From the NCBI RefSeq assembly GCF_037042905.1, contig NC_087252.1, forward strand, positions 1,738,001 to 1,798,000: a DNA stretch of 60,000 bases, given 5' to 3'. The notes below the pieces were generated by a model that was not told the origin of the DNA, did no database searches, and saw nothing but the letters and a program-made list of their open reading frames with translations. The translations under genes were made by a program, and so were the position numbers. Below, one piece after another: positions 7,462 through 56,038 of this stretch. The stretch comes from Lytechinus pictus (lineage: Eukaryota). Numbering within the stretch: position 1 is the stretch's first letter; each line of letters starts with the position of its first letter.

Positions 7462-7637
7462 CTGTAGCCAGGAGGCTCCTGACCCAGAGAGTAAAATGCA
7501 TACTCTCCCCTAGACCAAAAGCTTCGGTCTCTGTTATGTTGGTTGTTCAGCTGAACTCCGTTGGCTTCACTCACCAAACATGCCAAATACAGAGACCGAA
7601 GTTCTAGCGCGATCTGTACAGGGGACTCAATGGCCAT
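7462..7637 (-). pseudogene. Probable exon 1 of the SGNH-like cargo gene
   Basis: ATG at 7637, 58 codons + AG then GTATTC donor; the phase-2 join to exon 2 gives in-frame ...PPGY-R-SPSHLTGCQVLLIGDS. Confidence 0.55.
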
Positions 7638-7881
7638 ATGTTTATGTACTTAAGATCGGATAAAACGGGGAAGTGAATTTGCGCGACAGCCGAGGTTAGT
7701 CACTGTTTTTGTTCCTTTTAACTTAATTTTTCTCCGTTTTTGGGCAATTAATGCCAAGAGGGAATATTAATTTGCATTTTGGTCGCGTTAATTTTCAAAA
7801 TTTTTATTCATTAAAGACAAAAATTGAAGAGCCCCGACGGGGGGATTTCGCATTGCAAGTCCCCTAATGGTGGCTGCACGC

Positions 7882-7957
7882 TAGCGAGCCGTCTGTGTAC
7901 GAGGAGAATAAAAAAATTAAAAAATGTTAAAAAACTCCTCGAAACAGACGGCTGCTA
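7882..7957. mobile_element. ~76-bp TAG...CTA hairpin mini-element
   Basis: tagcgagccgtctgtgtacgaggag ... ctcctcgaaacagacggctgcta inverted arms; TSD unclear. Confidence 0.5.
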
Positions 7958-33549: not shown

Positions 33550-33590
33550 TTTCAAAGATGCGGTGAAGATGGCGGAAGTGCACTGTAATA
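33550..33590 (-). promoter_or_regulatory. Probable TSS and non-coding first exon of a divergent minus-strand gene
   Basis: Reverse complement cagtgcacttCCGCCATCTTcaccgcatctttgaaag|GTGAGT: ETS/YY1-like initiator motif plus consensus donor. Confidence 0.5.
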
Positions 33591-33701
33591 ATAGAGAGAG
33601 AGATAAGAGAGAGAAAGTGAGCTTCATATTTACATGATTCAAAGATTAGGGGATGAGATTAAGGGAACATTGGCTTAAAATGTTTCCAAATATTATCGCT
33701 A

Positions 33702-33873
33702 ATGTCCTTTTCGAAATGTTTGTTAGCTCTACTTCCAGTCAGTGCCAGTCCACTCTCCGTCTCTGATGGCGCAGTATGGACATCACCTTCTGAAACGTTC
33801 TTGGTTGGGCAGAGTGATGCATCGTTAAAGTGCTCGTTTCAAGGGAATCCCATTGCTGTTTACTGGTCAAAAG
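33702..33873 (+). CDS. Exon 1: signal peptide and N-half of IgV domain
   Basis: MSFSKCLLALLPVSA-SP...DASLKCSFQGNPIAVYWSK G|gtaaat; an alternative acceptor at 33726 would allow an upstream first exon. Confidence 0.75.
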
Positions 33874-36800
33874 GTAAATGATTTTTCATATTCTTAGATT
33901 TTATCCGATAATAATCAACATAAGACTATGCACACACAACCTCCTACTCGAAAAAAGAAAGAAAATGGAATACACTATTGTCCTCACAAGCTGATATCCG
34001 GTTATAGGCGCCATTGAGCGTCAAAATCTCTCTTACACAGCGTAAACTTTGAATATTTGACGTTCCATACGCACTTCATGAAAAGTTGACGCTCCAGAGT
34101 CGAATATGTTTAAATTTATAATCATACTAAAAATAGTTGTCAATCATGAAACACATTTGTATAATCATGATAATAATCTAAGTCATCAAAATAAAAGAAT
34201 CCTATTGTCATGATAGTGCATATTTTAGAGAGATTCAAATAATATCTGCCCTACTGAAACTGAAACATATTCAGGCCTATATAGCTTCAACAGGTACAAC
34301 GACTATATATGAACTCCATGGCAGACAATGATGTTTCAACAGTAGCTTTATTTTTCTCTTCCTGTGATTTTTTTTTCAAAAATCTTTAACTTAAATTATT
34401 TCTGCATAATGCTAAAAATGAACCCTAGGGGTCATAGCAGCACCCCAAGGGTGCTAACCTTCACGGTGGAGTGTGTTCCTTTCGGATCTTTGAAATATTT
34501 CCAAAGAATGGAAATTAGAGAAGTAAAATATAATAATGAAAAATAAATATTGTATAAAATGTAATTTCTTGAAGGTGAGTCGCTACAGACTGCAATGACG
34601 ATTATCACGTGGTACAGAGGGGAGATAGCAACCCAGAATGAAGGATTTGAGTTTGGTCCAGATTTCTCGCTGTTATTTGAGCATCCTGGGATATCAGATA
34701 CCGGGAGATACTACTGCAGGGTGTCTAATCATCAAGGGGTCCTCAGCTCAAACCATGTCGATCTTACAGTGTTAGGTGAGGTACACTGTTAAAACTGTGG
34801 TGTTAAAACTGACACCAGTTTGGTGTTAATAGAGGACCACACCCCGAGGTGTTTAAATTACACCCAAGATATTGAACATAACACCAAAGAGTGTAAATGT
34901 AACAACCAAAGGTGCTGTAATAACACCTATAGGTGTTAAACTAACACTGTCAATTTAACAGCGGTGTAAAATAACTGGTGTGGTCCTCTATGTACACCGA
35001 TTAACACCACATGCAGTTTTTGCTGTGTACATGAACCATGTTTATCTAGAATAAATTAATGGTGCAGTTTCGATAAAAGTGGACTTTTGTTTAACCAAAT
35101 TCCTTTCTGGGGGGTGTTTCATGAAAGGACTTGTCGGACGTTTTATCCGACAAGTCCCATTTTATCCGACAGTTACCATAGTAACAGTACCTCTCTGCCA
35201 ATCAACATCAGATAAAGATGTCAGATCTGACAACTTGTCGGATGAAAATGTTGATGAAACACTCCCCAGATGCCGCCATCCGTTAAAGTCTCACGATGGT
35301 GGATCTCCTGCCTTCCAGACTGCAAATTATTTTCAACAAAAATTATGACTCATTGTAGGTCTGCATTTCATTTCAGATTTATTTCAGAAACATTAAAGTG
35401 TTGTAAAGTTATTATTTTATCAGCGTTTTATACAATTATGTTAAATGCCATGTTTGATCATCTCGTTAAGGGGGGGGGGGGCTATACATAGTTTAGTGGG
35501 ACGCAGGTAAAAACGAAATCAATCAAACAAACTAACTAGCTCGTATATGGAATAATAATAATTGTTACGGAATGACTTGCACTTATCCAATACTGTTACC
35601 TTTGTTGCTTCTTAAGTTCAAGAATTTGATGAGGTTCAAGTGACCCAGTGTGAAGGAGATCCGTTTGATCAGGATTCACCATGTATCGTCAAAGTCCACC
35701 CAGACCAGGACATCCTGGAACTTGATTGCATCGTAGAGGGCGCCCGCCAACCTGTTCTTCTCACCTGGCATAATGCGGGTGCACTACACATTCCACTGAA
35801 CACCACATCTTCCAGCGAGAAAATACTGGAAGATGGAACATATCTAAAGAAGATATCTTTGAGACTGCACACCGAAGAGATGGGATCGGAGCGAAAACAG
35901 TTGATCTGCTTGGCTCAAGGTCCCAACGCTACTGAAACCGTAAACGTCACTATTCAATTTGAACCAGAAATATCCGAAGAAGGTATGTTAAAAAGATTCA
36001 TGATGATTTTTCTCTACTGTCTGAAAAAGCAAAATGATGAAATACTTGCAGATTCGAAATTAGTTAGAAGATCATTGTCTTATATCCATGCTCATTTCAT
36101 CTGGGCCATAACCAAAGTTTTGTCCCAGGGACACCGTAAAATTTTCTCCCCGTGTAAATCAGTTCAGTCAACTCCGTTTCTCATATTTATTACTTATTGT
36201 TAATTGATAATAACGAAATAATAAAAAGCAAAACAAAACATGGATACTTTCTCTGTTGATGGGCCAGACAAAATAGATATTGGTTGAATTATTGGAATTA
36301 GATAAAGTACATGTATACGGCAACGTAAATTTGATGGAATAAAGTATACTTTTAGTTAAAAACCCTTTTAAACACAGGGTGATTTCAACTGTTTACTTTT
36401 CGTTAAATATAAGCTCCTTTTATAATCTACGATATCATTTCTACGGCACTTATTTAACCATTTATGATTATTTTATTCCATATGCCGAAGCAGACTATTT
36501 CTATTATATATGTATATATATATATATATATATATACATATATAATATCTGATGCATATTTTTGTTCTTGTTTTGCCCCACTCATCCTCATTGCCCAGGG
36601 GCGTATCTGATCCATGCTCCGGATGGGGGCGGGGTGGCAAAGTGAAGAAAATATAAAAAATCACCCCACCCCCATCTAGAGCATCAATTACGCCCATGGG
36701 CAATGAGGATGAGTGGGGACAAAAAAAAAATGTATTACGATTTATTATGAAATCAGAATGAAATTACAAACGTTGCATGAACTATATATATATACATGTA

Positions 36801-39800
36801 GATCCATCATCAATACAAATTTTGAGGATTTTTTCTCGATAATTTGTTTTTATTAATGAAACTTTGTTTGTTTTGTATCGTGTGTATGTCAGATCCTTCA
36901 ACAGTGGGGATCGTCCTCGGTGTAATTTTTATTCTGGTGGTCATTTCTGCACTTGTTGCTTTTATCGTCTGGAAAAGGTTTATCAGGGGATCGAGAGAAA
37001 ATAAAGGTAAAATCATATTTTTAGTATAGTCTAATAATGTCGTTTCAAAATCCTTTATTAACATTGTCATGACAAAGAAAATGTTTATTCATGAAATTCA
37101 TAGAAATTGCGCAATACAATTATTATTATTATCTGTAATTAATTAGCATCATTTTATTGTAGGCCTACAAAGTTATAGATTCAATAACATACACAAACAT
37201 TTCAGAAACAAACAAACACTCATGTTTACAAAATTAACGTTAGGATATTATGTTTTGGACTGTTTATCTTTCCCTTTCTTTGTTCATCTTAAGCAATAAA
37301 TCATTAATTTCGTGTGTTATTATTTTGCTTTCTATGCAACTCAAAATCATGAAGGAGAGGAAAGTCAAGAAAAACTGCTTGGTATGTATCCCAGATTCGA
37401 GAAGTATATGAACCAAACTATCTGAACAATATTGGGATCTTTTTCTTGTACTCGAGTAACATTAAGAGAGAGAGAGAAAGAGAGAGGGAGAGATAGAGTG
37501 AGGGGGTGAGAAAGAGGGAGGGGGGGGGGTGGGAGTGAGGGGAACGGAGAGAGAAGTGAGTGTGTGTTGGGGGTTCATCATCTGTAACATAATTGAGCAT
37601 TCAAATTAGACGCAGTGCATGCATTAAGTTAAAGAGCGTCTATTCAATGTAAATAGGCCTATTAAAATATAATACGGTCATAATCTTATAATAGATTGTT
37701 AAAAATTCCAAAACAGAAATGTTGTTTGAAATTAGGAATCAGAAACCTAACTAAAACAAATGGACAATATACAAATAGCGAATAGGCATGAGTGCGATGG
37801 TGCGAGATTTCGCATGAGGTGAAAGAAAGATGCTCTATTCAACGAGGCGTTAGCCGAGTTGAATAGAGTGTTTCTTTCTTTCACCAAATGCGAAATCTTG
37901 CACCATTGCACGAATAAGAATATTCGCTATTTGTGTTGTACAACGCCTCGGAGTTTAGCGAAAATATGAAAAAAAGGAAGAGTTTTTCCCTGCAGTAATC
38001 TATGAATAGGGAGCAAAAATATTGAAAGCAAAATCCCACAAGCGCACATGATCTTGGGCAGCAATGGGCATTTTGCCAGCAGGCTAGGCTTATACGCGCA
38101 TTGCACCTTCATTTTTACTGAGCGCAATGAATTAAGGACGTTCCACAGTTAAAGTGAAATCCATGTCATTTTCACCCAACTTTGCACATAGATACTTTAG
38201 AACCTTAATATTCGAAATATGCAAAAATTAACATAGGTCCATGTGCTTGATTTTTTGCTATAGAACTTCAAAGTTCACCCAAATTGATGTTTTTAAGAAT
38301 TGCGCATTCAAAAGAATTTGGCATTTTTAGACCGCCCAAGATTACTACAATGAGTTTAAACCTGTATTACTCAATCAAAATACATGAAAAAGTCATCATA
38401 TTTCGCAAGAGAGTTAATAATTGTATCGTTAGAATGGAGAATATATTTATAGTGCTATTTGTTTGCAATCTAAGTTTAACAGCACTGTCAGTTCTTAAAA
38501 ATGGCGTAAAGATAACAAAATCCCAATCTAAAAAATGTGAAATTTCAGTAACAAACTACAAAAGTACAATAAATGCTGCACTTTATTTAAAATCCATGTC
38601 ATTTTCACCAAAGTTTGTAGAGTTGTAGAGGAAGGTATACCTAAGAGGAACAAACATTAAAAAATAGGGGTTCATGTGCTTGTTTTTAAACTATCAGTAT
38701 TTTTATAGAGCAAATGTGCTTTTTAAAACACCAAAAATGCGCCGAATGCTTTGTATCTATGTGAAGAAAAAAATCAAAACCACTCTACCATTTATTCAAA
38801 CTCGGGGTAATATTCGTGATTCTTGGCAGCACTGCAGAGTAAAGTATTTTGAAATTGTAGAGAATCTTTTTTTTTTTAATGGTCCATTGAATAATTCAAT
38901 TTTTTAGCTTCATGAAATAACGCATCGGATCTGCAATTAAAGTGCAGAAGATGAGAAAAATCAGCACATACCCGCAGCTAATTAATCACCTGTTCATCCA
39001 TTGTGACGTCAGCGCGCAGAGTGTAAACTATGCGCAGATCATAATGCGCACAAACATTACTGTGGAACGTCCTTAAATCGTATTGTACAACGCCTACTTA
39101 GCTTGTTGTACGCGAGCAAATGGGAGGCTGAATGTCAAACATTCGTACCGTTGCACAGAAGACGTACCATCCAAAATGTACCGTCCAAAATGTACCGTTG
39201 CACGGCTTTAGGAGGTGACGTCACAATACGATTTAATTCAATGCGCTCGGTAAAAATGAACAATACGCGTATAAGCCAGCTGGCTAAATGCGCAAGGCTG
39301 CCCAAGGTCATGTGCGCTTGTGGGATTTTGCTTTCTGCTTTTGGTATTTTTGCTCCCTTTTCATAGATTACTATAGGGATAAACTCTTTGTTTTTTCATA
39401 TTTTCGCTAAATTCCGAGGCGTTGTACAACACAAATAGCGAATATTCTTATTCGTGCAATGGTGCGAGATTTTGCATTCGGTGAAAGAAAGAAACGCTCT
39501 ATTCAACTCGGCTACCGCCTCGTTGAATAGAGCGTCTTTCTTTCACCTCATGCGAAATCTTGCACCATCGCACTCATGCCTATTCGCTATTGGGAGGCTG
39601 AATGTCAAACATTCGTACCAACGAACGTAGAGGGCAGCAACACACGGCAGTCAGAGTTATGACGGCAGTGTTGCTTTTAGCATGGACCTACTACTCAGAG
39701 TAGTAGGTCCATGCTTTTAGGAAGGTCCACTTCGCTCAGATTTTGTGACCATTTTATCCCAGAGCACTTTTTTGGAAGATTGTAGAGTTGATTTTTTTTC

Positions 39801-42800
39801 GTTTGTTCAATTTTACTATTTTTTATTGACAATAAAACCTCCAAGAAAATTTGTTAAATAATATTATTTTAACATATTTGTATTTTTAAAAATTTGTAAG
39901 ACAAAATGTAATCATGATTCTTGTAGTTTACATAGCAATAAAAATACATAGACTGATGACATTTGTGTTACCGTTCTTCTGCTTAATTTCGCTGCCCCTA
40001 CCAAATCTACACAAGCTAACGCCAGAGCCAAGACCATGATGTTCTGGTCTGGCCGCGCCGAAACTTCCCCGGTCACCTGTACCTATGCCTGTACCTCGGT
40101 GCGCGTACTGCGCTGCGTGAATGATAATGCTGACTGCACTGCACTGGCAGGATAATCTCGACGCGACTCGACTTAGCTAGATATGCACTTAATAATAATA
40201 ATAATGGTGGCTACTTATATAGCGCACAGGTCCACCTTTCGGTGCTCATGGCGCTTCAAGGAAAATAAACACAAAACACAACAATAGAAAACAAAAAAGA
40301 ATAGAATTTGAATTCTCCTGAATAAACACAATATTAAACTGCTAATGGGAGATTAAATAGGTTTTCAATCGGGACTTGAATGCTTCTGTTGATGAAATTT
40401 GGCGTAATTGGATAGGCAGTTGATTCCATAGCTTTGGTCCTATAACAGAGAATGCATGGTCCCCCCATTTGTGTTTTGTTCTGGGTGTCTGGAGCAATAG
40501 AGAATCAGATGATGAGCGAAGACTCCGTGAAGGCTGATATTTTGAGATAGAGCTGTTGAGATATGTGGGGAAGAGAGAATAAATTGAATGATGTATTAGT
40601 AAAAGAATTTTGAAGGTGATTCTTTTACCAACAGGCAGCCAATGTAAGGACTGGAGGATTGGCGAGATGGAGTCATACTTTTTAGTGTAGGTTAGGAGAC
40701 GGGCAGCAGAGTTTTGTAGACGTTGAAGTTTTGTCAAATCTTTTTGTGGGAGGTTACAGAACAATGAGTTTGAAAAATCTAAACGGGAGGAAATTAAAGC
40801 ATGGATAAGTATCTCGGCTGCAGGTTTAGACAGTGACTTTCTGATGACTTTCTGTTGAAAGATATAGACTTGGTCTGTCATTAATGTGGCACTATGGCGG
40901 ATGAGCAACGATAAATATTCAAGGTTAGAATTTTAATTTTAACTTACAGTGTAGATTGTAGTCTGAAAATCTAAAATAATTATGTTATATCCACAAATCC
41001 AACCCACATTTTGCAATCCATCAGGCAGGATCGAATACGACCACTAAACAGCAAAGCCAAGTCCCAGTCTAACGTTAGACATAATATTAGACAGAAATTA
41101 TCTGGTTCAGTATCGAGCTACGTATATTCCGACGGGTCTTGACTTGAGACGAACTATCAAGGGGCGAAGGTCTATGTCACATTTACTATTTTCATTCCAT
41201 AATTTTACAAAAATTTGTGTTAGCATATGCAAGCAGCCCACCGTACCTTACCTCAGCACCGACCGGCCCGGGTCGCCGGCGCGGTCATGCCAGCCATGGC
41301 GCTTGTATACTCAAGAGGCGGTGCTGGATTGTGTAGGCGCATTATGGTGCCGGTGCAGCGAAATTTAGATGAAGACGTATCAACCTCACGTATAATTGTT
41401 ATCATATTGATATGCAAAGTCATAAAACTGTTGTCACCACCATGTAATATTTTATGAAAATACAGGAACAAGTATTTCATATTTTTAAGCATGATATTTG
41501 ATGTAAAAACATTTCAAGCAAAAATAATGATAAAGAGGAAATGAAAATAAATCAACTCTACAATCTACTAAAAAAGTGCTCTGAGAGGTTTTCGGTGGTC
41601 ACAAAATGACTTGGCTAAATCTGGGTGAAATTAGCAGACTGGTTTATTTATGACAGAATTTAATCCTGTTTTACTGAAGATGTACAAAAAAATTGTGACA
41701 ATAATTGAGTGATATATTATTTTAAGAATGTGGTACATCATTATTCAATTTTATATATATTTTTTGTTTTCATTGTTTTAATCTACTATTGTCATAATCT
41801 ATTAGTTTACATCTATTTTGCTGTCACTCCGTGAGTGTATTGAATCGGATCATGGTTTCGTTGGCATGAGTGCGATGGTGCGAGATTTCGCATGAGGTGA
41901 AAGAAAGATGCTCTATTCAACGAGGCGTTAGCCGAGTTGAATAGAGCGTTTCTTTCTTTCACCGAATGCGAAATCTCGCACCATTGCACGAATAAGAATA
42001 TTCGCTATTTGTGTTGTACAACGCCTCGGAATTTACCGAAAATGTGAAAAAACAAAGAGTTTATCCCTATAGTAATCTATGAAAAGGGAGCAGAAATACC
42101 GAAAGCAGAAAGCAAAATCCCACAAGCGCACATGACCTTGGGCAGCCTTGCGCATTTAGCCAGCTGGCTTATACGCGTATTGTTCATTTGGGGACATCCC
42201 GATAGACCGCGGGTCCGATAGTCCGCGGGTCCGATAGACCGCGGGTCCGATAGTCCGCAGTGTGTGTGAAATTATGATCAGGGGAGCGTTTCATCAACAT
42301 TTTCGTCCGACAAGTTGTCAGATCTGACAACTTTCCTTGATAATGATTGGCTGAGAGTCACCGTTACCATAGTAGCTGTCGGATAAAACAGTACTTGTCG
42401 GATAAAACGTCCGACAAGTCCTTTCATGAAACGCTCCCCCGATATATCAAATGTCATCGAGAGGTCCAAAGGTCAAATGATACGAGACCATGGGGTTTTA
42501 TCAAGGGCGGATCCATGGGGGGGGGGGGCGAGGGGGAACTGCCTCACCCCCCCCCCCAGCTCAAAAAAAAAGGGGGAAGAGGGGAAAAGGGAGAGAATAA
42601 AAACAGAAAGAGGAAGATAGGAAAATAAGATAATAGAAAAGAGAGTTAAAAAGAGAAGAAAAAGGGGAAAGGAAAGACAAAGAAAAAAGGGAGAAGAAAA
42701 GGGGAAAGAAGAGGAAAAAAGAGGAGGTAAAAGGGCGAGAAGAAAAGAAAGGAGAAAGGAAAAGGAGGAAAAAAGAAGAAAAAAAAGAGGAAGGAAGAGA

Positions 42801-45800
42801 ATAATATTTAAATAGAGAGGAAGATGGGAAGAAAGATAAGAAAAAAGAGAGAGAGAGGAAGAGGGGAAAAGAAGAGAAGAAAGAGAGAGAGGGAGGAAGG
42901 GGAGGGGGAGAAGGAAAAAAAAGATTAAAAGAGAAAAAAGGGGGAAAGGAAAGAAATAGAAAAAGGGAAAAGTAAAGGGGGAAAGAGAAAAAAGTCGAAG
43001 AGGGAAATGAAAGAAAAGAAGAGAACGGAGTAAGGAAAAGGGGAAGAAAAGGAGGAAAAGAAGAAGAAAAAAGAGGAAGGAAGAGAATAATATTTAAAGA
43101 GAGAGGAAGATGGGAAGAAAGATAAGAAAAGAGAGAGAGAGACGAAGAGAGGAAAATAGAAAAAAGAGAGAGTAAGGGGGAAGAGAGGAAAAACGAGAAA
43201 AGAGAGAGGAAAAGATGGAAAGAAAAGACAGGAAAAAAAAAAAGAAAAGGGGGAAAGAAAAGATGGGGGAAAAGAGAAGAAAAGGGGGAAAAGAAGAGGG
43301 GGAAAGAAAGAGAGAAAGAAAGAGAAAGGAAGGAAGGGGAATGAGGATAAGAGAAAGAAAAAAGACAGAAAAGGAGACGGGAAATGGAAAAGGGAGATGT
43401 TGACCTGGACGTCGATTTGATGGCGCCAAAATGACGTTCGAACTATGGGGCGCCGAATTGATGTTCGAACTAGGGGAGCGCTAATTTGAATTTTGACCAT
43501 ATTGCGACAAATACATGTTTCAGAGAGGGGGAGGGGGGGGGGGGGCAAAGTTATATTTCACATGGGGGCGCCAAGTTTATGTTCAACCGAGGGTGCCAAA
43601 TTGACCTTGAACTTAGAGTGCTTCATGCAAATTCATTTTCGACCGGGGGCGCAACATTGCTCGTATTGCCTGTTTATAGTGAAATATATGTCCTGCCCAA
43701 AAAACTTAAATTAATGCGGCTGAATTAAAATATCCAGTTTTTACGATAACAGAAAAAACAACGTTTTCGAGTTTTAAGTCTGTTTAGCGAGATAGATACC
43801 ATGTTCAGGGTCACAAAAAAGGTTATTATCAAATTCAGCTCGCGCTACGCGCTCGCAATATTTGATTAATGAGGTATGCATCCTCTGCTTCAATCCCACA
43901 TGTAAGTGTTAGTGTTTTTCAAGTCAACATACATAGGCCGATCCAGGGGGCAAAGATTTTGCCCGCCCCCCATGGTGGCGCAAAAAGGGGTAAGAAACAG
44001 AAAAAAGGAAGAGAAAAAGGACAAGCAATTAGAATAGGAATTATACCTTAGTCCTTCTTAAGTCAGTATATAAAAAAATTGAGCTCGCGCTCTGCGCTGG
44101 CATCAATAAATTATTTAGTTATATACGCATCCCGACCTTACAGTTTTTTATGCGAACGAGAAGCACAAGCTGAAAATATTTGATATTCTAACCTGACAAC
44201 TGAAAATGTATTTTTCATTTCAACATTATAAAAGTTTTCAGCTAGCGCTTCGCGGTCGCATTCATTTCTTAATAGGTATGCATCGTGTTCATCATAACAA
44301 CTACTAACATAGGCGGATCGAGGCGGCCCGAGGGCAACCACCCCCCCCCCCTATTGACAGAGCAAATAAATTGTGAAAAACGGGGAAAGAAAAAAAAGAG
44401 GGAAAGAAAAAAAAGAGGGAAAGAAAGGAGAAAAAAAGAAGACGAAACATAAAAGGAGGAAGACGGGTGAATAAAATAAGGTCAGGAGAAGACTTGGAAA
44501 ACAATTTTTAAAAATATTTAATGTCACTATAAAGTTTCGCTCGCGCATCGCGCTCGCATTGCCTGTTCGATGAGATACATATCTTGCTCAATAGGCTGAT
44601 ATGTAGTTTAAAATATCAAGTTTTGATATCAATGTACAAAACATAATTCAGCTCGGACATCGATCTTTCATTATTTGTTTTATTTACCAATTTATGTTTT
44701 TAAGTGCACTGGAAAATGTCCGTTTTATGGTTTGAATCAACATTTGCAACATTTTGTGCGCTCGCACTATTTGCCAAGTAGGCCTACCTATTGTCTTTTT
44801 ATATTTCATATAAGATTCTCTAAATATACATTTTTCAGGTGTCTCGAATGTAAAAAAAATAATAAAGGCCTATGAGCTAGCGCTGTGCGCTCGCATTTTG
44901 ATTGGTGAGTTATGTATACCTACAGTGGCGTACCATGGGTCACGGCATTGGGGGGGGGGGGGGCACACCAGAAAAAATCTTAATCACTGAAGTTGCCAGG
45001 TATACTGACCTAATACAGACATTTAAAGGACAGTGCCATTAAACGGATATGTCTCTCACTGGTCAAATAATGCAAGCGCGAAGCGTGAGTTTAAGATTTT
45101 TGATATTCAGACCTAAAAAGGGACATTATAAATCTTTTGTAACCATGAAACGTACCTGTCTCGCTAAATAATGCGAGCGCGAAGCGCGAGCTGAAATTTT
45201 TGTAAATATTGACCCCCAAACAAGAAGATTTTAATTCATTAAGAGTATACACATCTCACCATGGACCCCTCAGAAGAACAGCCTGTGGCTGAAGAGGGTC
45301 ATCCAGCCCACGAGTGGAAAATAAATAAATAAATAAATAAATAAACAAATAAATAAATAAACCATAGTCATCCAATGCGAGTGCGAATAAGCGCTTGCTG
45401 ATTTTGTTAGAATTACATCTAAACATGCACATAAAGCACTTGTAATCATGATTAATATATCAATCTCACTAATCAAATCTTGCGAGAGCGAAGCGCGAGC
45501 TGAAAATTTTGGAAATTCAGACCTGAAGAGGGGCATTTAAAGGCTTGTTTGTAGGAATTCACGAAGACTATACGTAGTCCACTAACCGAATGATGCGAGC
45601 GCGAAGCGCGAGCTGAATTTTTTTGATATTCAGATTAGAAAAAGGGACATTTTAAGGACTGATTCTCGGAATTCATGGAGAGCAAACATATTTCACCAAT
45701 CCACTATACTGCGAACGTAAGCACGGACAGGAAATGTTTATTTTAAGACCTTGAATGGGGCAATCACTTTAAGTAGTCATGAAAAAGAAGCATACTATTG

Positions 45801-48800
45801 TACATAAAACAATAATAACTCGACGTGCGATGAAATATATTTGGCAGTTTGGTGTATATTGACTTGAAAACGGGAGGTTTTAGTATAACAGGATCATATA
45901 TCTCGTTAAACAGACAATGCGAGCACCAGGAACAATGAAGAAATAGGTCCTGAGCAAATTATGTTTCATGAAGTTATGAAAAAAAATGTTTCTTATGTAA
46001 TATAACATAACATAATTATGATATAATATAACATTATAATGAACAATAATGTTTTTTTCCAACTACGTTTCTCAGCCGGTAGGGGGGGGGGGGGGGGGCA
46101 CGTGCTCCCCATGCCCCCCGTAGTTACGCCACTGTATACCTATATATTAATTCTATAACAAACTACTTAAATCCCCCCATTAAAAAATTCCGGATCGCAA
46201 TTTGCGCTCGCATTATTTGCAAAAAATATATCAACCAATGAATCCTATTCATGATTACAAAAATACTTAAAATATCCAGTTTTCAGGCCTCATGCACTGT
46301 CAACAAATTTCACACACTCATTAGGCTTAACAGATTAATAAATATGAAATAAAATTTGTATGAATTCATAATAACTAAATTGTCCCTTTTTCATAAATAA
46401 ATATCAACAAGTTTTAGGAAAAGAAATAGAAGATAGTCATCATTCTTATATGATGACAAAATGTCCTTAGGCCTAAAATGTCTCGATCCTAGGTCAAATA
46501 AATAATAAAATATCAGCTCGCGCTTCGCGCTCGCATTATTTATATAGTGCTATCAAAATTCCCTATATACACATTGCTGTAAACAGTGCTTAAATTGACC
46601 CTTTTTATATCGGAATTTCAAATATTATTTTCAACTCGGGCTCTGCGCTTGCATTATTGATTTTATGATGAAAAATGAAATGTATTCAGATTGCCAGGAT
46701 TCTGTCTAACTCTAAAACACGCGCACGCATGTTTTTGAGATACAAAGCTTGATCTTATTCAAAACGTGCTAAAATTATCCAGTTTCGAATCAGAATATAA
46801 AAAAAAATTTGCTCGCGCTTTGCGCTCGCATTATTATTGTAGGAAGATACCAAAAATTACCCATCCTTTTTCATGATTGACAAACATGAATCGAATGTCC
46901 CATTGGGGGATTTGAAATCTCATCTTTTTAGGTTGGAATATCAAAAATTTTCAGCTCACGCTTCGCGCTCGCATTATTTAATCGTTGAAATATGTATCGT
47001 CTTAATGGCAAACTGCAAAACATCCTTAACAGGTCCCTTTTCGACCAGGCCAGAACGAATATTTAACATTTCTGCTCGCGCTTCGCGCTCGTGGTAATTA
47101 TATAGTTACATACGCGTCCTGTTCAGGTTCACAAACATTGCCCAAAATGTTCAATTTTCAGGACAAAATACATGAAATTTCATTTCTAGATTACATAGGG
47201 CTTAAGAGATTATTACACATTTATGCTGCTTATAAAGTAAAGCTAGGAAATGACTGTTAGGACATGGGCGTTTTGCCCCCCCCCCAAAAAAAAAAAGAGA
47301 GAATCAAGACAAAGAAAAAATAGAAAGAAAAGGGAAGGGATTAGGATGAAATATAATATTATTTTCCAAATATTATGTCAAAATCTATCACAACCTTGTA
47401 TTTTTGTAATAAAAATGTCAGCATAGTTGCTTGCTCGCTTCGCTCACTGGCAACTTCTTATTAATTTTATGCGATACACCATATCGAGCCCCCTCGAAAT
47501 TGTTGGCTCATTACGGCACTGGGACAACCCCTTCAAAGAAACAACAACAAAAAAAATCAACTTTGAGCGGCCGATCGGGGAAAATATGGGTGAACAAATT
47601 GCCCCTCACCCTATTGGCGGAAGCTGGGTCCGCCCCTGACTTAGGCTTTCAGGATATAATACATGAAAAATCTATCCAAAAAAAAAATCAGATCGCGCTT
47701 CGCGTTCTCATTATTTATTTAGGCCTTGTGATATACCTTAATTTGTTTTTAAGAAAGAAATCTCAGATTTTCTTTGATGTCTACCCCCCCCCCATTTCAT
47801 TTATTTATTTTTTACTTGGTGCCCTCGCCACCCCCCCCCCCCCGTGCACCCATGCTGAATAAATACACCACTGATGAGGAGAATTAGTCGATTGCTTCGA
47901 GATTGCATTATTCCCAAGAGGTTATCATTAATATTATTGAAGGGTATTCTAACACAACAGTACAGAAACTACAGCTCCCGTTCACACAATATTCTAGTAG
48001 GGCCTACTCTGGTTAGAAGTTAAACCAAATTGAACCCCCCCCCAAAAAAAAAAAAAAAAAAAAATTGATATTACATTATATATTCATGTTTTTTTTTTTT
48101 CAAGAACACATGAAATAGTGGTCTTTGTTTTTTTTTAATGTGATCATGTTAGCCTGGCCGGGAGGGGGTGGGCGCCATTTTTCGAAAAGTACACATATGG
48201 GCGCCAAAAATCAGGTCAAATTTGCCCCCCCCCCTCCCTCCCCACGAAATCCTGGATCCGCGCCTGGGTTCTATAACAATAACCCAATTAGGGTAATCAC
48301 CCCCTGACAACTACTTCAAGGAAAATATTATCCCCATATTTTTACTGCCGGGGACTGATACCCCCCCCCATCGGAAATTTACCCTCCAGACAATTACCCC
48401 GGATAATTACCCCTAGTACGGAGCCTTGAAAATGCCATCAACGTGACGACATGGCGTGGTACTTTATCTTGCCATGTCTTAATTGATCATTGGCGGCGGA
48501 AGGCAAAACAAATTTAAAGGGGTCCACCTGAAATTTTGGGATGGACACAGGTAAAAAATTTGACAGGAAAATCAACCAAAATTTATAGAAAGGACCACCA
48601 ACATTTTTTGACAAGAAAAAAAAGGTTATCAACCACAATTAGGGGGGGAGGGACAAACATATTTTAAGGGGGGTCCACCTCAATTTAGGGGGGGCGTAGA
48701 AAACAAATTGACAAGCAAAAAAAAAAAGGTTCTCAACTAAAAATCTAGGGGGGACCGTCCCCAAACCTCAAATTTAGGGGGAAAGGTCCCCGGCCCCCCC

Positions 48801-51800
48801 CCCGCTTCCGCCGCCTAAGTAATTAATACGCTTATTATTTCGACATAGCGATATATTCTATCTTGTCAAGTCGATATGTCCACATGGCGAGATATGAAGT
48901 GTACAAGTCCCGGCGAGAATCCCGATATATCGCTATGTTGACATGTAAGTCGACTTGGCAAGATTATCTCGCCATGTTGACATATAACTTTTTATAAGTG
49001 GACTGACTTGGCAGGATAACGTATCGCGCCATGCGGACATAATAAGCTTATTTATATAGTCGACATGGCAAGATAAAGTATCTCGCCATGTCGTCAAGTC
49101 GATGGCATTTTAGAGGCTCCGTATGGCGTCTAGAGGGTAAATTTCCGGGGGGGGGGGTAACAGTCCCTGACGATAAAAATATGGGGAAAATATTTTCCTT
49201 GAAGTAGATGTCAGGGGGAGATTGTCCTTTGGGTCATCGTTATAGAACCCCATGGACTCGTATCATTGGCCTTTTGACCTCTTGATGGCATTGGATCTCA
49301 CTATATCCTGATCATAATTTTACACACACCGCGGAATATCGGACCCGCGGTCTATCAGACCCGCGGACTATCGGACCCGCGGTCTATCGGACCCGCGGAC
49401 TATCGGACCCGCTGTCTATCGGACCCGCGGTCTATCGGGCTGTAACCGTTCATTTTTACCGAGCGCAATGAATTAAATCGTATCGTGACGTCACCTCCTA
49501 AAGCCGTGCAACGGTACATTTTGGACGGTACATTTTGGATGGTACGTCTTTTGTGCAACGGTACGAATGTTTGACAATCAGCCTCCCATTCGCTCGCGTA
49601 CAACAAGCTAAGTAGGCGTTGTACAATACATTTTGGATGGTACGTCTTTTGTGCAACGGTACGAATGTTTGACATTCAGCCTCCTATTTGCTCGCGTACA
49701 ACAAGCTAAGTAGGCGTTGTACAATATAGGAATAAACCCTTTGTTTTTTCACATTTTCGCTAAATTCCGAGGCGTTGTACAACACAAATAGCGAATATTC
49801 TTATTCGTGCAATGGTGCGAAATTTCGCATTCGGTGAAAGAAAGAAACGCTCTATTCAACTCGGCTAACGCCTCGTTGAATAGAGCATCTTTCTTTCACC
49901 TCATGCGAAATCTCGCACCATCGCACTCATGCCTATTCGCTATTTGCATATTGTGGGATTTTGCTTTTTGCTTTCCATATTTTTGCTCCCTTTTCATAGA
50001 TTACTGCAGGAAAAACTTTTTGTTTTTTCATAAATTCGCTAAACTCCGAGGCGTTGTACAACACAAATAGCGAATATTCTTATTCGTGCAATGGTGCGAG
50101 ATTTCGCATTCGGTGAAAGAAAGAAACACTATATTCAACTCGGCTAACGCCTCGTTGAATAGAGCATCTTTCTTTCACCTCATGCGAAATCTCGCACCAT
50201 CGCACTCATGCCTATTCGCTATTTGTATATTGTGACGTCACCTCCTAAAGCCGTGCAACCATGCGTGCAACGGTACATTTTGGATGGTACGTCTTTTGTG
50301 CAACGGTACGAATGTTTAACATTGATTCAGCCTCCCATTTGCTCACGTACAACAAGCTAAGTAGGCGTTGTACAATACAAAATAAAACTGATGGTTGATT
50401 TTGATTTTGACGACTTTTGTCCAGTCCGACACAAGTCACCCGCCTTTGCCCCCCATGTTCTTTTGCTCCCTAGTTTAAAAGGCCTGATGTCGCCACTGCC
50501 GCTGGGTTTTTTTTATCACAATTCCTTTAAAGAATGTATCGCCGTTTAATTTAATTTCCGATGATCATGAATGTGTTATATATTCTTATGATTTTGTTCG
50601 TGTTCTTCTGTATTCACTTAGAACAAAACACTATACAAATGAACATGATGAAAGAAAAGCGAGAAAGGGTTTTGGCCTACAAACCCCAGAGCAAGACCAC
50701 GCCTACTTCAGGTGAAATTGAGGAACCTCCGCCCATACACCTGGCTTTATTCGGCCTACAACTAGCTGGAAAGTCTGCCTTCATTAATTCTTTGTACTTT
50801 GCTGTGAAAGGTAGGCCTATGACAGGTTTGGAAAAAAAATGTGGATATAGGCCTGTCAAACAAATCTGTTTTATGGTTGTAACTTTCCCCCATATCCACT
50901 GTTTGCCAAATAATAACAACTTTTGTCAAGTGAAAATTATCATTTTGTAAAAATGTTTTAGATCAAAGTTTCACCTACATTTCAAGCTACATTTCAAGCA
51001 CATGCCCTGAAGAATGATTCTTCTCCTTTACGATGATACAATAATCATGAAATTTGATGTATATTTAGAGCAGCAATGACAGAATTGAATAAGGTGTTTA
51101 GTTACGCATCAAGCTCATCAAATATGCAAAACCTCTTTAGTCATAAATATCCGGGGGGCCGCGGGGGGGGGGGGGGGGGGATGGCAGTCAAACGTATTTA
51201 TATTCAAATTCCCTCCATTTGTGCAAAGAAAATTAATTGCTTTTCCTTTATAGAATCGATGTTAGTCCATCGTTAGACTGATGAATCGTACATGCATGCA
51301 TGATATTTTTTGTCAATCAGCTTTATCAATTTGAAATAAAAAATCTCCGGAATGGGTCGAATGTTTACTTTCTTGTTGAGTTTATAGGCAAGCGAGATAA
51401 TGAACTGAAAAATATCTCTGCTCTCTTTATTCACATATGAAAGCTATAATGTCTTTTTTTATCAAACAGGCGAATATTTGCATATCGCCGACGAATCAAA
51501 CGAAGAAAAACAGAGGACAGAGTGGAGAGAAGCTAAAACCCTGACTCCCTATATAAAAATATTGGATAATAAAGGTCTAGAGAATTACAACAATCACGTC
51601 ATTCCCGAACTCATGGAGGAGATCAGTAAGTCATCGTTGTTTTTTAAATTTTCTTTCAGGGGGGGGGGGGTGGCCTGTGGTGACAGTCGCCCCCAACACA
51701 AATCCAGACAGAACAAAGAAGAGGAGGGGGGGGGGTAACAGTGAGATAAGATGAGGGAAGAAACGTATTTTTGTGGGTTTTTCTTCATCTTTTTTCTCGA

Positions 51801-54800
51801 AAGAAAAAACAAGAGGAAGAAACAGAAAGAAAGAATTAAAGAAAGAAAGAAAAAAAAAGAACGAAAGAGTATACAAAACGAGATAACTGCGAAGGCGAGA
51901 CTTAGGGATCCAAATGTCGTCCGTCCGTCGTCTGTCTGTAATGACACAACTCCACAACCGTAAGTCGCTTTTCAACCAAACGTGGATGGTAGATGGACTT
52001 GGGGGACCAGCATGTTATGCTGCAGTCGGAGGTCACATGGTCAGTTCAAAGGTCATTTTCAGGTCAACGTTAAAGTTTACATGCAAGACTCTCTTATGAC
52101 ACCTAACTCTGCAACCGTATGTCACTTTTCAACCAAACTTGGATGGTAGATGGACTTAGGGGACCTGTATGTTAAGCTGCAGTCGGAGGTCACATGGTAA
52201 GGTCAAAGGTCATTTTAAGGTCAACGTTAAAGTTTGCATGCAAGACTCTCTCATGACACCTAACTCCGCAACGTACCGTTAGTCACTTTTCAACCAAAAT
52301 TGGATGGTAGATGGACTTGGTGGACCAGCATGTTATGCTGCAGTCGGAGGTCACATGGTAAGGTCAAAGGTCATTTTAGGTCAACGTTAAAGTTTACATG
52401 CAAGACTCTATTATGACACCTAACACTGCAACTGTAAGTCGCTTTTCAACCAAACTTGGATGGTGGATTGACTTGGGGGACCTGCATGTTAGGCTGCAAT
52501 CGGAGGTCACGTGGTAAGGTCAAAGGCCATTTTCATGTCAATGTTAAAGTTTACATGCAAGACTCCCTTATGACACCTAACTCCGCAACCGTTAGTCACT
52601 TTTCAACCAAACTTGGATGGTAGATGGACTTGGGGGACCTGCCTGTTATGCTGCAGTCGGAGGTCACATGGTAAGGTCAAAGGTCATTTTCAGGTCAACG
52701 TTAAAGTTTACATGGAAGACTCTGTTATGACACCTAACTCTGCAACCGTAAGTCGCTTTTCAACCAAACTTGGATGGTAGATGGACTTGGGGGACCTGCA
52801 TGTTATGCTGCAGTCGGAGGTCACATGGTAAGGTCAAAGGTCATTTTCATGTCAACGTTAAAGTTTACATGCAAGACTCTATTATGACACCTAACTCTGC
52901 AACCGTAAGTCGCTTTTCAACCAAACTTGGATGGTGGATGGACTTGGGGGACCTGTATCTTATGCTGCAGTCGGAGGTCACATGATAACGTCAAAGGTCA
53001 TTTTAGGTCAACGTTAAAGTTTACATGGAAGACTCTCTTATGACACCTAACTCCGCAACCGTTAGTCACTTTTCAACCAAACTTGGATGCTAGATGGACT
53101 TTGGGGACCTGCATGTTATGCTGCAGTCGGAGGTCACATGGTAAGGTCAAAGGTCATTTTCAGATCAACATTAAAGTTTACATGCAAGACTCACTTATGA
53201 CACCTAACTCCGCAACCGTTAGTCACTTTTCAACCAAACTTGGATGCTAGATGGACTTTGGGGACCTGCATGTTATGCTGCAGTCGGAGGTCACATGGTA
53301 AGGTCAAAGGTCATTTTCAGATCAACATTAAAGTTTACGTGCAAGGCTCTTATGACAAGTGTTTATCATCCCAGTCATTTCACAATGAAGTTTTGATACA
53401 ATTCTGTTCGTGCCCTCGCAAATCACGATATTTCTGGTTATTTTCATAAGTGGGCGAGACACAAAATCGCTTTTGCCTTGTCTTTGGTAAAATGGGCACT
53501 GATTTGAGAAAGCCCACTACATGTATAAAAAGGCAAGGGGCACTTTCTCACACGTAAAACGTGTCCTTCTCAGGTTTAAGGGGCACAGTACACGTTCGTA
53601 AGTGGGGATTTGGGGTAAAATAGGCACTCATATGAGAAATGGCACTTGCTAACACAAAAAATGGGTCATAATCAGGTCTAAGGGGCACAAAACGTGTGAA
53701 CTCGAGAGGGGGCATTTTTTGTAAAAATTGGTACTTATGCGAAAAGGGTAACACCTAAACGAGTCGTCCTCAGGTGAAAGGGGCACAGTACACGTTTGTG
53801 TGGGGGCACTTTTCTTGCATAAAAATGGCACTTTTCTTGCGTAAAAAGAGCACCTTTTCACTGCTTCAAAAAGAGTGGGGGGGGGGGGGGGTGCACTGTG
53901 CCCCCGGCCCATAGGATCGTCGCCCCAGGAAATCTGATTTTTTTTTTTTAAATGGTCACCCCCCACATTCAAACCGTCACATTATCAGTCCGAACATTTC
54001 GCACGATGTTTTGGAATTTAACGGACATGACCGAATATTGATGTTTTCTTTATTTTACTTATTTATCTATTCATTTATTTATTGTTATTTTGTAAAATAT
54101 TCATTCATTCGTACATCCATCCATTAATTAATTAATTAGTTAATAATTAATTAATTCATTAATTTCTTCCTTCTTTCCTTCCTTCCTTCCTTCCTCCCTT
54201 CCTCCCTCCATTCATTCATTCATTCATTCATCCACCCATCATCTATTCCTTCCTTCCTTCCCTCCATCCTTCGTCCCTTCGTCCCTTCGTTCATTCATTC
54301 ATTCATTCATTCATTCATTCATTCATTCATCCACCCATCATCTATTCCTTCCTTCCTTCCTTCGTTCCTTCCATCCTTCGTCCCTTCATTCATTCATCCA
54401 CCCATCATCTATTCCTTCCTTCCTTCCTCCCTCCCTCCCTCCATTCATTCATTAATTCATTCATTCATCCACCCATAACCTATTCCTTCCTTCCTTCCAT
54501 CCTTCGTCCCTTCATTCATTCATTCATTCATCCACCCATCATCTATTCCTTCCTTTCTTCCTTCCTTCCTTCCTTTCTTCCTTCCTCCCTTCCTTCCTTC
54601 CCTTCCTTCCTTCCATTCATTCATTCATTCAATTATAAGTTTTAAAATGTTTAATGCATCCTGGCAATAATAACGCAATGCTTTCGTTTTAATTGCTTTT
54701 GGAAATTTCTATTTCTGAATTTGGTTTCCTATTATAGTATAACAAATCTCTCTTGCTCTCTCCTTACAATATTTGTATTCGTATTTTATAGGAGGAAGGA

Positions 54801-56038
54801 GAGGACAAGTCCCACAAATAGTGGTACAAAACGGCAAAATCGTTGATTGTCCAATTCTGATCTGTAATTTCAGGTAAATATATTTTTATAGCGATTATTT
54901 TGATGATCATTATATTTTTATAGCGATTATTTTGATGATCATTATATTTTTGATGATTATTTACTGTAGCAAATTTTCCATATTCCATTATTTTCATTTT
55001 ATTACCAATCGGACTATTTTCCAAGGATATAAAGTTTGGTAGCAACTTGAGAAAAATCACTTGCTCTATATATCTCACATAATATAAATTGTTTTGTGTT
55101 AGTTATTGACGGCATTGAATCATATTTATACCGTAGTAAAAAGAATAATACAAAATTAACACAAACCGAATTCTTTCTAATCTTATAGTGGAGAGAGTCG
55201 TGGTGATAAAGCTGCCGCGAATTTTATTTCGGAGTTTTCAAAGGAAGTTCATAAACTACTTGGTGAGTATAGTAACACCAGCGTATCTGATAATTAATAA
55301 CGATGCTGCAGGCCGAATTAACTCAAACTTGATTATTTTATCATAAAGTCAAAACAAATGTTTTTTCCCTCAACAATAAAAATATGACCTATATCTGGCG
55401 TTCCATCACCTCTACTGTGTATTTTTCGCGAATAAAAAAATAAAATCAGTAAACAGGTAAAAAGGGTCCAGAACTAGATCGATCACTGGCGTCCCAAAAT
55501 TGATTTCAATGAAGTTAACATTGTTTTGAGACCAAATTATGAGGCACCTTAATTTTTTTTATCGGAATAGTAACTAACAAATATTGTACCTAAAATTATA
55601 AAAAAAGATACATATCATCATTTTTTTTTTAATTCGAACACGATCGAACAGTAAAACGTGCAGAGCAAATTAAATGCGTTTAATAAATTTCGTTTATCTT
55701 TAGGTCGACGTTTGGTCGTTGTTTTGACACACAAGGATGAATTGGCTACGGAGGATGATGGAATAGATATGAGAAACTGGCTTGTCAAAGAGTGTGAAAT
55801 ACCAGCTCGTCATGTGTGGATCTTTGAAAACTACACTCAAGAAAACCACGAGGAGAACGTCATAAAGACTAATGAACTTCTAGACTTTCTATTGAGATGT
55901 GTTGAGCTGGCGGAACTAAACATCATCTTCAGACACACGAACGAAACCCAAACGCTCCCCAAACGCGCCAGTGGAAATGTGTTATTTCCTAAGCGTTTCC
56001 CCCTTGTAAATGAACTTTATGAATATTTTGCATTATGA
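33702..56038 (+). CDS. Type I membrane protein: signal peptide, 2 Ig-like domains, TM, cytoplasmic IFI44-like P-loop GTPase (~571 aa, 10 exons)
   Basis: Join 33702-33873, 34575-34775, 35617-35982, 36893-37006, 37355-37381, 50622-50810, 51470-51625, 54792-54873, 55189-55262, 55704-56038 = 1716 nt, all GT-AG and phase-consistent, no internal stop. Confidence 0.72.
34575..34775 (+). CDS. Exon 2: C-half of IgV domain
   Basis: aag|GESLQ...FSLLFEHPGISDTGRYYCRVSN...DLTVL G|gtgagg; DxGxYxC motif. Confidence 0.9.
34784..35027. mobile_element. CACTG-ended (CMC/EnSpm-like) MITE, TA TSD
   Basis: ta-cactgttaaaa...tttttgctgtg-ta with repeated aacacc motifs. Confidence 0.7.
35617..35982 (+). CDS. Exon 3: second Ig-like (C2/CD80-type) domain
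   Basis: LDCIVEGARQPVLLTW...DGTY...LICLAQG; ttaag acceptor, g|gtatgt donor. Confidence 0.88.
36568..36726. mobile_element. Small intronic inverted-repeat element
   Basis: ccccactcatcctcattgccca ... tgggcaatgaggatgagtgggg arms. Confidence 0.6.
36893..37006 (+). CDS. Exon 4: transmembrane helix plus basic stop-transfer
   Basis: DPSTVGIVLGVIFILVVISALVAFIVWKRFIRGSRENK; cag acceptor, g|gtaaaa donor. Confidence 0.9.
37355..37381 (+). CDS. Putative micro-exon 5 (GEESQEKLL)
   Basis: Good g|gtatgt donor, phase 1-1; acceptor uncertain (aag at 37354, or a mutated caa at 37339). Confidence 0.5.
38136..39072. mobile_element. TTAA-targeted (Kolobok-like) non-autonomous element
   Basis: TTAA-ggacgttccacagt...actgtggaacgtcc-TTAA; empty site gaaTTAAatcg at ~49471. 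Confidence 0.85.
39681..39713. mobile_element. 33-bp perfect palindrome with 7-bp TSD (putative P-superfamily excision footprint)
   Basis: CTTTTAG-[catggacctactactc a gagtagtaggtccatg]-CTTTTAG. Confidence 0.8.
40190..40850 (-). mobile_element. L2 LINE 3' fragment with intact tail
   Basis: ORF 40342..40908 HALISSRLDFSNSL...LQRLQNSAARLL...LHWLPV...FKSRLKTYL; tail aagcgccatgagcacc...gcgctatataag(ATT)n. Confidence 0.9.
44923..46134. mobile_element. hAT-like MITE, perfect 8-bp TSD
   Basis: TATACCTA-cagtggcgta...ttacgccactg-TATACCTA. Confidence 0.85.
45263..45360 (+). mobile_element. 98-bp retroposon 3' tail insertion
   Basis: ACCAT-[ggacccctcagaagaacagcctgtggctg...(AAAT)n]-ACCAT. Confidence 0.7.
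48417..49123. mobile_element. TIR MITE (tacggagcc...ggctccgta) with a nested G-rich element at ~48490-48817
   Basis: ~40-bp inverted ends; internal gacatggcgaga repeats. Confidence 0.7.
50622..50810 (+). CDS. Exon 6: GTPase G1/P-loop
   Basis: IHLALFGLQLAGKSAFINS; ttag acceptor, g|gtaggc donor. Confidence 0.88.
51470..51625 (+). CDS. Exon 7: G2 (RT) and G3 (DNKG)
   Basis: QRTEW...IKILDNKGL; cag acceptor, a|gtaagt donor. Confidence 0.87.
51878..53485 (+). mobile_element. Helentron-associated (HINE/Tsp-like) element with 9 tandem ~157-bp repeats in intron 7
   Basis: ggcgagac subterminal motif, (GTCC/GTCT)n, unit starts at ~51941, 52096, 52253, 52413, 52570, 52727, 52884, 53040, 53197; 3' gggcgagac...gccttgtcttt. 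Confidence 0.82.
54100..54630. repeat. Compound (TTCC)n/(TTCA)n microsatellite with higher-order repeats
   Basis: Visible; recurring atccacccatcatctattcc spacer. Confidence 0.9.
54792..54873 (+). CDS. Exon 8 of GTPase domain
   Basis: RGRRGQ...IVDCPILICNF; tag acceptor, ag|gtaaat donor; phase 1-2. Confidence 0.8.
55189..55262 (+). CDS. Exon 9 of GTPase domain
   Basis: SGESRGDKAAANFISEFSKEVHKLL; g|gtgagt donor; phase 2-1. Confidence 0.8.
55704..56038 (+). CDS. Terminal exon 10: G4 (THKD) and IFENYT motif
   Basis: GRRLVVVLTHKDEL...VWIFENYTQE...LLDFL...TGA; AATAAA at ~56087. Confidence 0.87.

Follow-up and report, generated by a model that had tools for sequence, protein, structure and literature searches.

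A candidate receptor family of sea urchins joining immunoglobulin domains to a predicted cytoplasmic GTPase, with a stretched member in Lytechinus pictus

The locus described here raises the question of whether exons for an immunoglobulin (Ig) domain membrane protein and exons for a GTPase, which lie more than 13 kb apart on one strand, belong to a single gene. The window, i.e. the whole 60,000 nt stretch that was analysed, is taken from the sea urchin Lytechinus pictus (G000:C8:1738001-1798000; contig C8 is NC_087252.1). An original prediction made from the letters alone read ten phase-consistent exons in it as a receptor with a signal peptide, a variable-type Ig domain (IgV) split over two exons, a second Ig domain, a transmembrane (TM) segment and a tail carrying a full set of G motifs. 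All ten exons were found to be present, and they join into one frame of 571 aa with no internal stop; 9/9 introns are GT-AG, eight in phase 1 and one in phase 2. The predicted domains and motifs were likewise borne out by Pfam, hydropathy and motif reading. Across the family to which this locus belongs, it is practically certain that the Ig-Ig-TM part and the GTPase form one gene. For the window copy itself the balance tips slightly towards an 11-exon gene of ~55 kb encoding a 578-aa type I membrane protein, in the order signal peptide, IgV, C2-type Ig (IgC2), TM, helical linker and cytoplasmic GTPase.

Gene structure of the window locus

The exons in the window and the long intron that divides them are as follows.

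33727..33873, + strand: exon 2, end of the signal peptide and first half of IgV (phase-1 acceptor at 33727; 94% identity to the paralog exon)
34575..34775, + strand: exon 3, second half of IgV (Pfam V-set, E 5e-5)
35617..35982, + strand: exon 4, IgC2 (Pfam C2-set_2, E 9e-4; 91% protein identity to the paralog)
36893..37006, + strand: exon 5, single TM helix, then basic residues (hydropathy; helix 269-325 of the paralog AlphaFold2 model)
37355..37381, + strand: juxtamembrane micro-exon, phase 1-1 (27 nt, in frame)
37382..50621, + strand: intron of 13,240 bp (ends align with the 647-bp intron of the paralog)
50622..50810, + strand: GTPase exon 1, N-terminal helix and G1/P-loop (50753-50776)
51470..51625, + strand: GTPase exon 2, G2 Thr (51517-51519) and G3 DNKG (51565-51576)
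54792..54873, + strand: GTPase exon 3, phase 2 at its end
55189..55262, + strand: GTPase exon 4
55704..56038, + strand: last coding exon, G4 THKD (55727-55738), ENYT (55826-55837), C-terminal helix and stop

The sole strong hydrophobic segment in a Kyte-Doolittle plot lies in exon 36893-37006 (peak 3.3 over 19 aa). The Ig matches of single exons (V-set, C2-set_2) fall just below the curated Pfam cut-offs, and those for V-set and Ig_3 are passed by the full-length paralog described below. Omission of the 27-nt micro-exon leaves the frame intact (563 aa). The ten-exon structure is more than a chance arrangement, its exons and phases being found again in the tandem paralog and, by tblastn, in a paralog of only 25-50% identity. 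The GTPase half is matched exactly by a RefSeq protein built from the same five GTPase exons (XP_063959412.1, L. pictus, 272 aa, 'uncharacterized'); as RefSeq has that half alone at this locus, the fusion is absent from the public annotation there.

The original prediction placed the start of translation at ATG 33702, giving a first exon at 33702-33873 (+ strand). This start, 25 nt 5' of the acceptor at 33727, is disfavoured by the RefSeq model of a paralog (P0058), in which a separate 46-nt signal-peptide exon is spliced to the acceptor equivalent to 33727, so that ATG 33702 probably lies within intron 1 and is not a start codon. An intact signal-peptide exon with its donor occurs about 1.6 kb before the window (C8:1736356-1736401; 6856-6901 of locus L044), and its addition extends the model to 11 exons and 578 aa, still open.

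The ends of the 13,240-bp junction intron align with the short intron of paralog L005 (170/210 and 140/172 identities), and its interior consists of repeats, for example inverted 270-bp copies at 37764-38033 and 49966-50233, with a LINE fragment at 40342-40932. Judged from this comparison, the window copy is very probably still spliced across the expanded 13.2-kb intron. Expression was checked in public runs (11 found, none of them on record as RNA), four of which were aligned to 33550-51700. Two contigs from run X5, the kind of which is not on record, cover 34572-34773/5 only, i.e. exon 34575-34775; the match occupies positions 85-286/8 of records of 422 and 452 nt, with 0 and 18 differences respectively, and the window and the paralog differ at 14 sites in this exon. 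Such confinement to a single exon is the pattern that spliced RNA would give.

Paralogs and distribution of the family

That the Ig-TM and GTPase exons form one gene, joined at phase-1 introns, is upheld family-wide by the paralogs. In a tandem copy (L005), which lies 70-90 kb upstream, all ten exons recur with their phases unchanged, in an open frame and within 7.3 kb, and the paralog exons are modelled in RefSeq as one protein, signal exon included (XP_063959092.1, P0058, 565 aa). At least seven loci in the genome carry exons for Ig, TM, G1 and G4 in this sequence, at 1.70, 1.77 (the window), 4.24 and 14.97 Mb of C8 and at 24.24, 24.30 and 28.90 Mb of C1; an eighth is likely at 4.28 Mb of C8, where there is an Ig match and a G1 match.

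When the GTPase half was compared by phmmer with 1.84 billion representative sequences, 57 matches were obtained and 36 of these were scanned with Pfam. Ig, TM and this GTPase occur together in 10/36 (P0002, P0003, P0008, P0009, P0010, P0012, P0022, P0033, P0037 and P0041). The full-length database models with a species name come from L. pictus, L. variegatus, Diadema antillarum and D. setosum, while P0033 carries a locus series that we take to be that of Strongylocentrotus purpuratus; a further Strongylocentrotus model, P0007, consists of TM and GTPase. The combination of Ig, TM and P-loop domains and the paralog expansion that the original prediction proposed to look for in echinoderms thus both exist, in at least seven genomic loci and four named urchin species. 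In the L. variegatus model closest to the window G1 exon (P0005, 81%), the IgC2 exon runs into the same G1-exon start. A word-based homolog search with full-length alignment gave four matches among 7999 scored, with Ig words dominating.

Dozens of related V-set exons occur elsewhere in the genome in clusters (C8 2.0-2.2, 13.7-14.0, 18.9 and 23-26 Mb; C9 1.33-1.53 Mb; C10 21.4 Mb; C11 19.8 Mb). A crude scan by length and P-loop found no NACHT-like long open reading frame (ORF) in 13 stretches downstream of similar Ig exons; one of the 13 held another GTPase G1 exon.

The GTPase domain and its relatives

The motifs GLQLAGKS (G1), T (G2), DNKG (G3), THKD (G4, not NKxD) and ENYT are all present, and the features of a TRAFAC P-loop GTPase were found throughout: GxxxxGKS, the G2 Thr, DxxG, a G4-like motif and a Ras-like fold. 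Over 107 rows the G1 lysine (K45) is invariant, and T74, R77, D90, N91, R92, G93, T170, N204 and T206 are conserved in >=90%. The AlphaFold check suggested in the original prediction returned a confident G-domain fold (pLDDT 86, pTM 0.84). Among solved structures the top Foldseek matches are GIMAP7 and GIMAP2 (E 4e-7 to 1e-6), and VIA-align places Toc33 first (Z 13.8, root-mean-square deviation 3.8, 203 aligned); 50/50 VIA rows listed and every Foldseek row listed are entries that contain a G domain. Sequence searches are less specific. No Pfam family matches the GTPase (best MMR_HSR1, E 0.16), and a sequence search of PDB gave weak septin, YsxC and IRG matches only (best E 2e-6). AIG1 was absent among 25 listed of the 27 Pfam families matched by 33 rows (E 0.01) and did not match P0001 at E 10; NACHT likewise gave no Pfam match, the fold being that of a G domain.

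A profile search, whose query contained some frog sequences, gave 305 matches. Those listed (120) belong to sea urchins or to an extensive 'uncharacterized' family in frogs, a few rows being unnamed; phmmer with the window protein alone already finds frog members (P0013, E 1.5e-12). Among structure neighbours in the ESM Atlas, unnamed chordate clusters score highest (TM-score by row 0.74-0.76), followed by mollusc clusters (0.60-0.63) and IFI44 (0.51-0.55). The description of the tail as IFI44-like therefore stands in part: IFI44 clusters are structural neighbours, but unnamed clusters rank nearer, no match named IFI44 is among the 120 listed of 305, and no TLD domain was found by Pfam in the window exons or in 36 scanned relatives, the seven TLD matches of the genome all being on other contigs. 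As judged from sequence and modelled structure, the domain is a TRAFAC GTPase of an unnamed urchin/frog family, with IFI44 as distant kin and Toc33/34, GIMAPs and septins as the structurally closest proteins; 'IFI44-related' is a fair label for the predicted G domain.

The frog proteins (P0013, P0027, P0044, P0054, P0066-P0182) are represented by numerous paralogs in each species and include proteins with tandem domains as well as one fused to GBP (Bombina). They are a possible unrecognised amphibian immune family.

Ectodomain and membrane linker

In the AlphaFold2 model of the full-length paralog (pLDDT 75, pTM 0.46) a helix (269-325) runs on from the TM segment, and the G domains are tethered 35-105 residues from the membrane. 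With a signal peptide and a TM segment, family members are not soluble proteins of the IFI44 type; an extracellular Ig part followed by a membrane span, as in the sea cucumber receptor AjNLRC4 (see below), was found by Pfam, hydropathy and the AlphaFold2 model. Nectin-3 D1D2 is the top Foldseek match of the full-length model (E 4e-14), although it is nearly tied with many T-cell receptor chains and so shows merely a tandem of V and C Ig domains. An echinoderm V-set+NACHT cluster of the ESM Atlas is a weak structural neighbour, with a low TM-score. In an Atlas feature search with the full-length paralog, where scores <0.9 were taken as leads only, chordate clusters of Ig+IFI44-like proteins came top (0.89), and V-set+AIG1 scored 0.82.

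Evolution and selection

In a maximum-likelihood tree of 48 rows (midpoint-drawn, with no outgroup and no IFI44 sequence, and with tandem-domain proteins and fragments left out), 15 receptor-type rows lie together with P0006 on the same side of a branch supported at 95/99; for three of the 15 (P0001, P0004 and P0016) the receptor label is inferred, their database models having no TM. The tree is compatible with a single fusion before the Diadema-Lytechinus split, the P0006 type having later lost its ectodomain. Genes of this type have at least nine G1 exons on C8, nested in the receptor clade and lying in two opposite-strand clusters (31.05-31.43 and 35.7-36.07 Mb; L008-L013, L018, L019). No Ig exon was found by hidden Markov model (HMM) search in the 30-40 kb upstream of four of the nine copies, nor a TM exon by scan within ~9 kb of four copies; P0019, also of this type, has an N-terminal hydrophobic segment. 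Given their position inside the receptor clade and the four checked copies with no upstream Ig exon, ectodomain loss does occur. The G1 exon starts with a phase-1 acceptor in the window, in both paralogs read and in the P0006-type copies read, which fits the phase-1 exon shuffling put forward in the original prediction. Several C8 loci lie in mirrored pairs (also at 27.98/38.79 Mb), an arrangement suggesting either that a large segment was duplicated in inverted orientation or that the duplication stems from the assembly.

Purifying selection acts on the gene. By simple counting on two sequences, the ratio of nonsynonymous to synonymous divergence (dN/dS) between the window copy and the paralog is 0.30 for the ectodomain, 0.34 for the GTPase and 0.98 for TM and linker. 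The ectodomain has the lower synonymous divergence (0.17, as compared with 0.38), and gene conversion may be the cause.

A possible mechanism and its alternatives

An immune role for the receptor is rather probable. The wider proposal, that these proteins constitute an old urchin family of 'receptor GTPases' in which, as in receptor kinases, Ig ligand binding directly activates an intrinsic, dimerisation-dependent immune GTPase, is tentative and rather doubtful. In the mechanism preferred here, the Ig domains would bind a surface ligand, either a microbial glycan or another cell, and the receptors would cluster on it, raising the local concentration of the tethered G domains. These could then pair head to head in the GTP-dependent manner that is typical of GTPases of this class; the dimer would build a membrane scaffold or signal leading to uptake, membrane remodelling or cell death, and GTP hydrolysis would turn it off. 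Such a switch, worked by ligand clustering and a G-domain dimer, is possible by analogy, if somewhat short of probable. GTPases of the dynamin, septin, Toc and GIMAP kinds are described as sharing a GTP-dependent parallel G-domain dimer (PMC4774019), and GIMAP/AIG1 GTPases as membrane scaffolds (PMC3417536). For AjNLRC4, an Ig-TM-NACHT receptor, it is reported that the Ig domain binds microbes, that the protein dimerises upon infection and that its NACHT tail binds beta-actin and drives phagocytosis (PMC8699970).

Several observations weigh against the interpretation given here, and some of them would be explained if the family were real but the window copy decaying or split, so that its main products would be a GTPase begun at Met 50639, which would be soluble, and/or an Ig-TM protein cut short, with the compact paralog as the receptor. 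The RefSeq model at the locus is GTPase-only and begins at just that internal Met; introns 1 and 6 are stretched by repeats to 35 kb and 13 kb (0.65 kb each in the paralog); one exon 1 copy is cut by a transposon (see below); and the ancestral micro-exon acceptor has been lost, reading AA instead of AG at ~37339, so that a downstream AG has to supply the 27 nt in frame. The window copy also reads DNKG instead of DNRG, with K at position 92 where R stands in 88/89 other rows and 12/18 receptor rows, and is missing the Gly before G2. The joint from TM to G1 does not appear in the 15 joints listed out of 357, an output swamped by repeats and poly-G artefacts, raw-read depth over exon bins is <0.4 in runs X9 and X11, and P0005 omits the TM exon and ends after G1, an imperfect model. 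The P0006 type supplies a precedent for the loss of an ectodomain. Decay nevertheless appears improbable, as exon 1 is intact upstream with its donor, every exon is open, the phase-1 acceptor of the G1 exon is preserved, as are the ends of the intron, and one contig matches exon 34575-34775 alone with 0 differences; the dN/dS of 0.30-0.34 points the same way, though it is unable to separate the two lineages.

Other difficulties concern what the protein does. The G domain might hold nucleotide but hydrolyse it scarcely or not at all, serving as a scaffold that recruits cytoskeletal or trafficking partners, for which AjNLRC4 and the GIMAP scaffolds would be precedents (PMC8699970; PMC3417536); the residue after G3 is hydrophobic instead of a catalytic Gln, and several receptor members have degenerate G3/G4 motifs. 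Against this, the G1 Lys and Ser are retained in 18/18 receptor rows, the G2 Thr and the G3 Asp in 15/18 each, and two arginines near the active site throughout the family, which exceeds what a dead enzyme usually keeps, and we consider a pure scaffold unlikely. The Ig domains, for their part, might serve cell-cell adhesion or self/non-self recognition in a nectin-like V-C2 arrangement, or face an internal lumen, with the GTPase in contact signalling or tethering. The nectin-3 match, the low copy number and the conservation of the two paralog ectodomains (dN 0.05, dN/dS 0.30), which are not diversifying as pathogen receptors often are, would all suit such a role, as would the presence of mitofusin among the top G-domain fold matches. 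In VIA-align, mitofusin(-2) (Z 13.3), EngB (13.2) and EF-Tu (13.1) nearly tie with Toc33, and since these include generic GTPases the affinity to Toc and GIMAP is modest. The near-tie of nectin with T-cell receptor chains, the weak V-set+NACHT neighbour among echinoderm clusters, the immunity GTPases that are the nearest solved G domains by Foldseek, and the lineage-specific tandem expansion of the family in urchins and frogs all tell against such a role, and a primary role in adhesion seems quite improbable.

Comparison with known systems

Similar in design is AjNLRC4 of Apostichopus japonicus, also an echinoderm protein, which is reported to have Ig outside, a membrane span and a cytoplasmic P-loop NTPase in one chain (PMC8699970). 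The urchin tail differs in being a TRAFAC GTPase rather than a NACHT ATPase, and the urchin protein has one TM helix where two are reported for AjNLRC4; the latter has a reported function, whereas the urchin receptor is known here from sequence and models. TM proteins of Crassostrea virginica are predicted single-pass immune receptors whose C-terminal domains vary and may include a cytoplasmic septin-like AIG-GTPase; they differ in their Cys-rich ectodomain, in the adaptor domains (DED-TRADD-N) between TM and GTPase and in the GTPase family, and are computational only (PMC8195603).

IFI44/IFI44L share a related G-domain fold (TM-score as above), but IFI44 carries a putative TLDc (PMC5614904) that the urchin protein does not have. 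The top feature matches of the full-length paralog (0.89) are two chordate Atlas clusters of 'IFI44-like' proteins with Ig I-set, of 411 and 365 aa (75 and 72 members); the V-set+AIG1 cluster has 63. These are possible independent Ig-GTPase fusions, and similar designs may have arisen independently in chordates. The nearest non-urchin relatives among the matches listed are the anuran GTPases (Xenopus LOC121398201 and LOC108704219; Atlas clusters of 281 and 317 aa), with HMM E-values down to 1e-62 for single-domain members and structural TM-scores of 0.74-0.76. They share GxxxxGKS, T..R, DNRG, TH and ENYT with the urchin GTPases, but differ in length (~270-350 aa), are in some cases tandem or GBP-fused (P0044), and are themselves uncharacterised; frog-type rows among the 57 phmmer matches have neither TM nor Ig.

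Toc33/34 and GIMAP/AIG1 proteins are tail-anchored, and we know of no extracellular ligand-binding domain in them; an exception beside GIMAP/AIG1 is the chordate V-set+AIG1 cluster (480 aa, score 0.82). These membrane-associated proteins are the best solved folds for the urchin domain, and their G domains are reported to dimerise with GTP (PMC4774019). They are only 15-18% identical to it, and the AIG1 result given above also sets them apart.

The original prediction did not recognise the architecture as characterised, and no description of an Ig-TM-GTPase architecture or family was found in the open-access literature (subscription journals and supplements being outside the scope). There are partial precedents beyond those it named, in sea cucumber, oyster and chordates; the oyster TM/AIG-GTPase proteins and the chordate Ig+GTPase clusters mean that the general idea has been partly anticipated. 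The Ig-TM-GTPase is a real, conserved and unstudied variation on the modular theme of receptor plus NTPase.

Transposons and repeats in the window

Several tandem duplicates of the promoter/exon-1 region are present, which repeats have interrupted (625-1514, 9489-11433, 12157-13394, 17450-17901 and L044/L045); among the duplicates found, one alone retains an intact exon 1. Two features lie at or next to the first of these.

1470..1514, + strand: duplicate signal-peptide exon, homologous to the first exon of P0058, cut one base before the splice donor by a transposon
1515..9268, no strand assigned: young DNA-transposon-like insertion of 7.75 kb, with inverted ends CAGTCA...TGACTG and a 4-bp target duplication

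The insertion contains a CXC-domain ORF (5492-6040, - strand; Pfam TCR, E 3e-7), and of the 15 genome matches to its left end, 14 extend over nearly the full length with 98-100% identity. The idea that the transposon had knocked out the gene in its signal exon was dropped, as an intact exon duplicate exists just upstream of the window. Retroelement pieces with RVT_1 matches lie in the introns at 12717-14381 (+), 15229-16791 (+) and 21703-23070 (+), while those at 26605-27507 (-) and 40342-40932 (-) are Penelope- and LINE-type by eye and have no Pfam match. There are also intronic tandem arrays of a 157-bp unit (51941-53357; 9 copies, 91%) and of a ~163-bp unit (31381-32310).

Significance

Single-pass receptors with an intrinsic kinase, phosphatase or cyclase are textbook examples; to our knowledge those with an intrinsic GTPase are not. 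Sea urchins depend on expanded innate receptors, and the family described here is an unrecognised one among them, whose members the public annotation calls 'uncharacterized' and at times splits in two. A contact made by such a protein outside the cell could bear directly on an enzyme of a type that immune systems often employ. The analysis also brings to light a large GTPase family, as yet without a name, that has expanded in frogs. If clustering does activate the G domain, antibody cross-linking would be a simple switch for studying this class of GTPases, and a tethered, triggerable receptor would make the biochemistry of IFI44-related GTPases and of those in frogs accessible to experiment.

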